From: Escherichia coli
Lineage (GTDB): Bacteria > Pseudomonadota > Gammaproteobacteria > Enterobacterales > Enterobacteriaceae
Assembly: GCF_044647545.1 (NCBI RefSeq)
Contig: NZ_CP172818.1
Strand: one strand, 5' to 3'
DNA length: 64,000 bases
In this document: positions 20,839 through 23,092 of the stretch, piece after piece
Numbering within the stretch: the first letter of the stretch is position 1
Layout of the letters: every line of letters starts with the position of its first letter
The notes under the pieces: generated by a model
Told to the model about the DNA's origin: nothing
The model's input: only the letters and a program-made list of their open reading frames with translations
Database searches by the model: none
Translations under genes and position numbers: made by a program

Positions 20839-21369
20839 ATGTTTCTTATAATTACCAGGGATACGATGTTCTTCACTGCGATGAAAAACATTCTGAGTAA
20901 AGGTAATGTCGTTCATATACAGAACGAAGAAGAGATCGACGTAATGTTGCATCAGCATGCCTTCGTCATTATTGATACATTAATGAATAATGTATTTCAT
21001 TCTAATTTGCTCACTCAAATTGAACGATTAAAACCTGTCCATGTGATTATTTTCTCTCCCTTTAATATTAAACGCTGCCTGGGGAAAGTACCGGTGACCT
21101 TTGTTCCGCGAACTATCACCATCATCGACTTTGTCGCACTCATCAATGGCAGTTACTGCTCTGTGCCTGAAGCGGATGTGTCCCTTTCGCGCAAGCAGCA
21201 TCAGGTTCTGAGCTGCATTGCGAATCAAATGACAACGGAAGATATTCTGGAGAAACTGAAAATATCGCTAAAAACGTTCTACTGCCATAAACACAATATC
21301 ATGATGATCCTCAATCTTAAGCGGATCAATGAGTTGGTACGCCATCAGCATATTGATTATCTGGTGTGA
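20839..21369 (+). CDS. dctR: LuxR-family transcriptional regulator DctR (YhiF)
   Basis: 176-aa ORF with C-terminal LuxR-type HTH; synteny slp-dctR. Confidence 0.85.
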   Translation: MFLIITRDTMFFTAMKNILSKGNVVHIQNEEEIDVMLHQHAFVIIDTLMNNVFHSNLLTQIERLKPVHVIIFSPFNIKRCLGKVPVTFVPRTITIIDFVALINGSYCSVPEADVSLSRKQHQVLSCIANQMTTEDILEKLKISLKTFYCHKHNIMMILNLKRINELVRHQHIDYLV

Positions 21370-23092
21370 ATATTCAGGGTACTGGTAACGGTATCCGGGT
21401 TAATGTGTGCGATATGTCCCAGTATCGGTGTCTTTGCCGCGGGTACGGTTATAGGCCACATCAAGGCTAAACAGATCAGTGGTATATTTCGTCATTACAT
21501 CCCAGCCCCAGATTTTGGCGTTCGGGACGTTATACGACATAGTTGTCGCCGCCGCGAAATCGACGGTCGTGGAGATGTAATCCTTCGCTTTGGTATCAAA
21601 GTAGCTGGCTTTAAATTCCAGAGCATCATTGGACAACATCAGGTCATCAAAACGCAGCCCAAAACCGTACTCCTGAGTTTTTCGTTAGTTTCCGGACGTG
21701 CAGCGTGGCACCCAATAGTTGGTATAGAAGCGACCAATCGAGAAGTGCTTAGAATCGTTATACATTTCGCCCATCGTCGGGGCGCGGAATACCTGGGCAT
21801 ATGAGCCAAATAACATCAGCCAGTTGGTCGGGTTGATAGTCATCCCCGCACGAGATGACCATTTGTCAGCATCAACATCTTTGTAGCCGTCGCTGCTACC
21901 GCGATAACTGTCATAGCGGGTTCCGCCAAGCAGAGTAATCGGCAGATCGCGTAAGGTGATCTCATCCTGTAGCCAGCCGGAGCTAAAATAGATTTTGCTT
22001 GCGGGAAGCCCGTCGTCGCGCCGCCCGGATGTTGTTCCTGACGATAATACTCACCGCCATATGTCAGTAAGTGAGAAGCGAAACTGTCGGCAAATAAGTC
22101 CGGAACGGTTCTCCAGCCTGGCTCCTTTTGTTATCTGTTCACGATACTCGCCGGAACTCCCCGTGTTTTGCGCATTAATACGGACTTCCGACCAGTAAAT
22201 TTTTGCATCTGCATTTAACCAGTCGTTGCCCTGTGGGGCGAGTTTATAAGAAAGCTGCGCATCGCGTTGAATTGTTGAACGATCAACCATCGGGTTGCTG
22301 CTATCGAGAAACTGCTCAACAGTCTGCGGATTTTTTGGTTCACGCGCGTCGTTGTTGTAGTAACGCACTAAACCGCTCAGAGACTGGGCTGAAATCAATT
22401 TGCCAGGTCCCTTTCGCCAGCATGTTATTAATGGACTCGTCATTCGGCGCGGTTTCACCATTGCTCTGGCGTAAATCACCCCGATCGCGACTGGACCAGG
22501 CCACAATACCATCCAGATTTTCAGTTCGCCCAAACGCGCTCGCGCCTAATCCCAGGCTATGGTCCCCCGTGCCGCCAGTACCAAAGACACGAAAACCACT
22601 GCTTTGTCCTTCCTGCAATAAATCTTTTGCATCGACCGTATCGTAGGAGATCACTCCACCCAGCGCGCCACTGCCATACAGTAATGCTGAAGGTCCGCGA
22701 ACGATCTCAACACGCTTGATCAGCGCCGGATCGAGAAAAGTGCCATTCAGGTGTCCGGTATCCGTTCCCTGGCGAACACCATCGACAAGAACCAGCACGC
22801 CGCGATGATCATAGCCACGCATATTTACATCCTGACCGTTGGTTCGTCCGGTACCATCAAGAGTAATTCCAGGAACATGACGCAGCAAATCAGTGGCTGG
22901 AGTCGCCGTTTGATTTTCAGGAGCGGAAGTGTCGATAACGCTGACCATCATAGGCGCTTCGAAGGAACTACGTGCATTCCCGGTTGCCGTAACGGTCATG
23001 GTTTCAGTAGCAAAAGCAAATGTTGGCAAGGTGGCAGAAACAGCCAAAGCCAACAAACTCAAACGCAACGAGGTAAATTGCGGACGTGACAT
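21370..23092 (-). pseudogene. chuA: TonB-dependent heme receptor ChuA/ShuA, disrupted by frameshifts and 3'-truncated
   Basis: Minus-strand fragments 22340..23092 (signal peptide, TonB-box/plug region), 22051..22533 and 21400..21639 lie in different frames; the reading continues as NPDTVTSTLNI up to 21370, directly abutting the dctR stop; the final roughly 85 codons and any chuS are absent. Confidence 0.65.

Follow-up and report, generated by a model that had tools for sequence, protein, structure and literature searches.

The chu/shu heme-uptake island of Escherichia coli and Shigella dysenteriae lies between dctR (yhiF) and yhiD, and the same site is occupied in the sequence analyzed here, a 64,000-nucleotide (nt) stretch of E. 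coli contig NZ_CP172818.1 (hereafter, the window) that represents a chromosomal segment extending from yhiJ-like DUF4049 genes through bcsA. The nearest complete genome, NZ_CP033850.1 (strain FDAARGOS_497), served as the reference; its gene order is dctR, a 60-bp spacer, chuS, a 48-bp spacer, chuA, the divergent chuT-hutW-hutX-chuY-chuU-chuV array, and yhiD. The window shares chromosomal site, gene order, and allele with FDAARGOS_497-like strains, and its remnants of chuA, T, W, X, Y, U and V are colinear with the known island. Unlike the intact island, the window lacks chuS and the last 85.7 codons of chuA, and every remaining gene is frameshifted by changes that are found in no other genome.

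The dctR gene is intact and identical to that of FDAARGOS_497, with 0 differences across positions 19396-21369 (1.97 kb). Its stop codon, ending at 21369, directly abuts antisense chuA, the minus strand just past the stop reading ...INPDTVTSTLNI. The minus-strand translation of 21354-21404 is INPDTVTSTLNIHTR followed by a stop; thus, the chuA frame crosses the junction and terminates three codons into antisense dctR (HTR and a stop). The first-pass annotation, which was made from the sequence of the window, had placed antisense chuA immediately after the dctR stop, and the open reading frame (ORF) of dctR together with this translation bears out that placement to the base. The annotation had also reported the absence of about 85 codons from the end of chuA and of the whole of chuS, both of which fall within the gap mapped below.

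In an exact comparison with NZ_CP033850.1, window position 21369 corresponds to reference position 1147238, the final base of the dctR stop, and window position 21370 corresponds to reference position 1148635. The right-side homology extends back to 21368, and the GA at 21368-21369 fits both sides. The alignment to a chu-positive genome that the annotation had proposed accordingly yielded both the breakpoints and a 2-nt microhomology, an overlap of a kind that is fairly frequent by chance. Absent at the junction, by comparison with the intact locus, are 1,394 bp: the 60-bp spacer, chuS (1,029 bp), the 48-bp spacer, and 257 nt of the chuA 3' end, that is, the 85.7 codons. By analogy with TonB-dependent receptors in general, the absent part of chuA would encode the last strands of the barrel together with the aromatic residue at the C terminus. 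Neither the missing 1,394-bp DNA nor a ChuS-like protein was found elsewhere in the window by DNA and protein searches.

The same juxtaposition of dctR and chuA in intact chu-positive strains would speak against any loss at this position; no such strain was found. The dctR-chuS-chuA arrangement is intact in all 2,232 chu-positive complete E. coli genomes, each of which aligns in two pieces across the junction point. Among 5,426 complete E. coli genomes, not one spans the junction, and a 26-mer across it has no match in 100,044 GTDB species-representative genomes or in JGI metagenome contigs. A search for a terminator or promoter newly formed at the junction detected nothing notable, and nothing relevant was found in the literature on known chu deletions or pseudogenes.

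Comparison of chu-positive genomes with a chu-negative genome (strain M1) showed where the island begins and ends. The two kinds of genomes part at the first base after the dctR TGA and rejoin at window position 29017, beside yhiD, so that the junction is at the first base of the chu island. BLAST carries the alignment of chu-negative genomes 9 nt beyond the dctR stop, where the spacer ATTTCAGG... resembles the chuA piece ATATTCAGG (window 21370-21378 versus L007 2071-2078). The possibility that the junction is a remnant common to chu-negative strains was rejected, the local score of the spacer being 7, compared to about 12 for shuffled spacers against the island, as expected of a chance likeness.

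The fidelity of the sequence switches at the same point, from ~0.02 differences per kb on the left to ~20 per kb on the right, with the first right-side lesions at 21406-21418. The first small lesion is located 37 nt inside the island from the junction, and the last one 11 nt short of the right border. A simple deletion would leave a faithful parental copy on both sides of the junction, and on the right side, the copy is not faithful. The first-pass annotation had proposed a deletion with an endpoint at or near the dctR stop. The position stands, the left endpoint being 0-2 nt from the last base of the stop; a discrete biological deletion in an otherwise normal chu locus is doubtful because the junction coincides with both the exact island border and the point where fidelity drops.

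The flanks of the island contain a single difference from FDAARGOS_497 in 53.9 kb (~99.99% identity). Positions 1-17500 account for one difference (99.994% identity), and positions 29017-64000 are identical to the reference save for one small intergenic patch. The one difference in the first 17.5 kb is a one-base loss at position 13, beside a T run within a DUF4049-family gene and close to the window edge. In the remnant of the chu island (21370-29016), by contrast, a MAFFT alignment revealed ~156 private differences, namely, 111 substitutions, 28 deletions, and 18 insertions; under the gap-friendlier BLAST alignment, the count is 62 substitutions and 71 gap openings. The density of differences is thus 20.4 per kb in the 7.65-kb island versus 0.019 per kb in the flanks, a roughly 1,100-fold excess. 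The lesions form about 40 tight patches (median spacing 3 nt, coefficient of variation 2.1) in which substitutions are mixed with indels of 1-5 nt. All seven remaining chu genes are frameshifted by private changes, with 2-8 frameshifting indels per gene (Table 1), all of which, in chuA as well as in chuT, W, X, Y, U and V, were overlooked in the first-pass annotation. The N-terminal fragment of the chuA remnant retains a Plug domain (Pfam), and an exact protein look-up found no identical protein on record for this 250-aa ChuA fragment.

Table 1. Features of the window at and around the dctR-chuA junction, and other stretches that depart from the reference
Feature	Coordinates	Strand	Details
Second non-faithful block	17501..18338		Relatives carry ArsR/SmtB regulator and permease genes; ~850 bp missing, poly-A-rich junk, plus-strand G loss
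dctR (yhiF), intact LuxR/GerE-type regulator	20839..21369	+	176-aa ORF, TGA at 21367-21369; Pfam GerE; annotated as dctR in the reference
Junction	21368..21370		Breakpoint mapping; 1,394 bp gone; matches the left chu island border to the base
chuA remnant, codons 1 to ~575 of 660, without C-terminal barrel strands	21370..23092	-	24 substitutions, 8 indels (7 frameshifting); first in-frame stop at codon 251
chuA/chuT divergent spacer	23093..23764		4 garbled patches, ~24 private differences
chuT remnant	23765..24674	+	4 frameshifting indels; first in-frame stop at codon 166 of 305
chuW/hutW remnant	24694..26027	+	7 frameshifting indels; first in-frame stop at codon 56
chuX/hutX remnant	26040..26534	+	2 frameshifting indels
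chuY remnant	26534..27162	+	8 frameshifting indels
chuU remnant	27211..28204	+	3 frameshifting indels
chuV remnant	28201..28972	+	4 frameshifting indels
Final private lesion (AATA lost at 29006) and right island border	29006..29016		Chu-negative homology resumes at 29017; faithful sequence from there
Third garbled patch, yhjD-yhjE intergenic repeat (CCCCTCGCCCCTTCGGGGAGAGG...)	48148..48216		G runs lost (GG, GGGGG), several 1-3-nt insertions vs FDAARGOS_497; perfect on either side

The origin of the lesions was addressed with a four-way alignment in which the window was compared with FDAARGOS_497, an O157:H7 strain, and 'clone D i2' of phylogroup B2. The window has the base of FDAARGOS_497 at 302 informative sites; 94 substitutions in this alignment occur in the window alone, and just three have the B2 or O157:H7 allele. 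The best 25 listed genome matches to the chu region all tie at 98.1% identity, and for one patch in chuT, identity does not exceed 91.5% in any of 2,236 genomes. On these grounds (the FDAARGOS_497 allele at 302 of 302 counted sites; 3 of ~100 private substitutions B2- or O157-like), we rejected the idea that a decayed chu allele had been imported from a different lineage: the lesions are private, recent, and superimposed on the local allele, which excludes recombination from a decayed lineage. True pseudogene decay keeps pace with divergence at neighboring neutral sites. Old neutral decay was likewise rejected, given that it would have marked the flanks too, where divergence is near zero; extrapolation from the flanks predicts ~0.14 events for the island, against the 156 observed.

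Nor do the lesions have the look of a mutational spectrum. Transitions and transversions among the island substitutions stand at 62:49, and G<->A swaps outnumber C<->T swaps 48 to 14 (p = 1.7e-5), indicating strand bias. The G<->A bias has the same direction in chuA, encoded on the minus strand, and in chuT-V, encoded on the plus strand, so that it follows the strand of the record rather than transcription. Single-letter indels occur mostly outside homopolymers, 22 of the 33 involving a base that is single, doubled, or non-adjacent in the reference. Neutral decay would instead yield a strand-symmetric spectrum, with indels gathered in homopolymers or repeats. Two technical sources were examined in this connection: nanopore methylation-motif errors were rejected, there being no enrichment at GATC (Dam) or CCWGG (Dcm) sites, and homopolymer-driven errors are unsupported given that most indels fall outside homopolymers.

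Gene loss through illegitimate recombination at short microhomologies, together with pseudogene decay, is known from host-restricted lineages of E. coli and Shigella. The window resembles such ordinary loss and decay in its missing stretch, with a 2-nt overlap that chance could also give, in the multiple frameshifts, and in the dispensable, virulence-associated nature of the locus. It differs from ordinary decay in that the lesions are ~1,100-fold denser than in the flanks, private, patchy, strand-biased, and bounded by the island, with indels outside homopolymers. A fully biological account would invoke a mutational burst restricted to this locus, simultaneous with the deletion or later, by which heme uptake was destroyed and the neighbors were spared. 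The confinement of the lesions to within 11-37 nt of the island borders, the inactivation of seven of the seven remaining genes, and a spectrum fixed to one strand, as in some single-strand damage processes, are compatible with this account. We nevertheless consider it highly improbable: neutral decay predicts only the ~0.14 island changes given above, from one change in the 53.9-kb flank; no bacterial process is known that would produce ~2% substitutions together with indels across 7.6 kb and stop at sharp borders; not one lesion is common to any related genome; and a neighboring block that has lost 81% of its G and 3% of its A cannot be mutational. A real island-restricted mutational shower in a natural isolate (~2% substitutions and small indels, strand-biased, with sharp borders), combined with a 1.4-kb deletion starting from the first base of the island, we hold to be extremely improbable. 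If true, such a shower would imply an unknown mechanism that targets or erases an accessory locus and spares the adjacent core genes.

The neighboring block is located 3 kb upstream, at 17501-18338, and for these 838 bp, no E. coli genome with matching sequence was found. Its right part is colinear with the 3' half of the permease gene. Compared to the homologous permease, base retention in 17805-18345 is 97% for A, 88% for C, 70% for T, and 19% for G. The GC skew of the block reaches -0.70, and a junk run of A and C is present at about 17680-17735. The G dropout is uniform and is followed by an abrupt return of perfect sequence at 18339, so that a single Sanger read tail, fading gradually, is unsupported as the source. 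To our knowledge, no mutational process acting on double-stranded DNA gives such base-specific loss. Such selective disappearance of a single base type from one strand bears the signature of base calling or data handling. The third patch, at 48148-48216, has likewise lost G runs. The gap of ~850 bp with junk in this block shows that the chu island is not the only non-faithful stretch of the record, which contains at least one further join over a gap filled with junk, and because the G-loss block is not mutational, a technical cause for the whole set is the simpler reading.

Three private changes lie close to this block, at 18342, 19365, and 19395, in or just upstream of a 406-aa hypothetical ORF (18654-19874) that lacks Pfam domains; one change removes TTA without shifting the frame. 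These changes are absent from all best-matching genomes. In M1, O157:H7, and 'clone D i2', the gene of this ORF carries frameshifts or truncations. An exact look-up of the 406-aa protein of the window found no identical protein on record. On the other side of the block, direct repeats of ~115 bp that are ~89% alike (14862-14975 and 15093-15206) are present in the gorA-arsR interval beside dinQ. Both copies exist in the reference, and we take them to be, probably, the agrA/agrB small-RNA repeats of the dinQ locus.

We favor, with a probability of about 0.6, the reading that the dctR-chuA junction reflects either a false join or the border of corrupted sequence rather than a clean natural deletion. 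The lesions are private, far denser than differences in the flanks, bounded by the island, strand-biased, and located near a block of base-specific dropout. The errors are private to this record and unlike any natural allele, and they carry a base-specific, single-strand signature, as is characteristic of artefacts. Also like assembly artefacts, the window combines an abrupt switch of fidelity at a join, dropout of a base on one strand with a junk homopolymer nearby, and sequence missing at joins. The junction is the left edge of a non-faithful block that spans the entire chu heme-uptake island and that, under the favored reading, would have arisen during production of the record. Candidate causes include a false join over an unassembled stretch with low-quality fill, an unpolished or low-coverage consensus, and other non-biological corruption of strain-variable segments. 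We infer that the 1,394-bp gap and the small lesions have a common technical origin; the strain itself probably carries a normal dctR-chuS-chuA-chuTWXYUV island, like its near-identical relatives.

Several observations weigh against this reading. The technical origin is inferred rather than demonstrated, and, unlike in known assembly artefacts, the error profile fits no sequencing platform cleanly, being neither homopolymer-driven nor concentrated at Dam or Dcm sites. In the block at 17.5 kb, G is lost uniformly between abrupt borders, unlike in the gradual decay of a read tail. The technical reading does not account for the coincidence of the defects with strain-variable segments, and other variable spacers, such as 49853-50029, are intact. 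Finally, loss of 1.4 kb is unusual for a low-coverage consensus, and long reads normally reproduce structural variants faithfully, so that spurious small lesions would not preclude a real deletion.

If the deletion is real, illegitimate recombination at the 2-nt GA microhomology would have removed chuS and the 3' end of chuA, and technical errors, for example, from few or poor reads, would have been overlaid on a genuine 1,394-bp deletion. The junction is clean, with a microhomology of the length typical of illegitimate recombination, dctR is left intact, and consensus errors by themselves seldom remove 1.4 kb; moreover, of 2,238 genomes with a match to the chu region, four cover under 80% of that region, which may reflect partial loss of the locus. 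We regard a real deletion as possible but unlikely, however. For an independent event, it would be an improbable coincidence that the left breakpoint falls both on the island's first base and on the fidelity switch. The absence of the junction from all 5,426 complete genomes and from the metagenome and species-representative contigs, and the second gap of ~850 bp with junk, which attests to false joins in the record, point in the same direction.

The base-exact placement of the blocks at boundaries of presence/absence polymorphisms (the dctR stop, 18339, and no more than 11 nt from the right border of the island) also raises the question of deliberate or computational alteration, either in an engineered strain or through in-silico modification or imputation of strain-variable segments, such that the junction would mark a boundary set by design or by an algorithm. 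The dropout of a single base type, being uniform, is not read-like, and the degenerate poly-A/C run at 17680-17735 looks algorithmic. Such an alteration nonetheless seems improbable to us, given that there is no scar, cassette, or recoding logic, that the lesions are irregularly clustered rather than uniform, and that some variable spacers are untouched.

The practical value of the dctR-chuA junction thus lies in flagging the quality of the record, which contains at least three non-faithful blocks (17501-18338, 21370-29016, and 48148-48216). Pseudogenes, deletions, or novel ORFs found inside these three blocks should be discounted until checked against the reads. Taken at face value, the junction would lead to the strain being scored as having lost heme uptake and possibly to an atypical chuA result in phylogroup typing, an interpretation that the evidence advises us to distrust. 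The junction is best treated as a data-quality flag rather than as biology; if the deletion is real, it would represent the ordinary loss of an accessory iron-acquisition locus.
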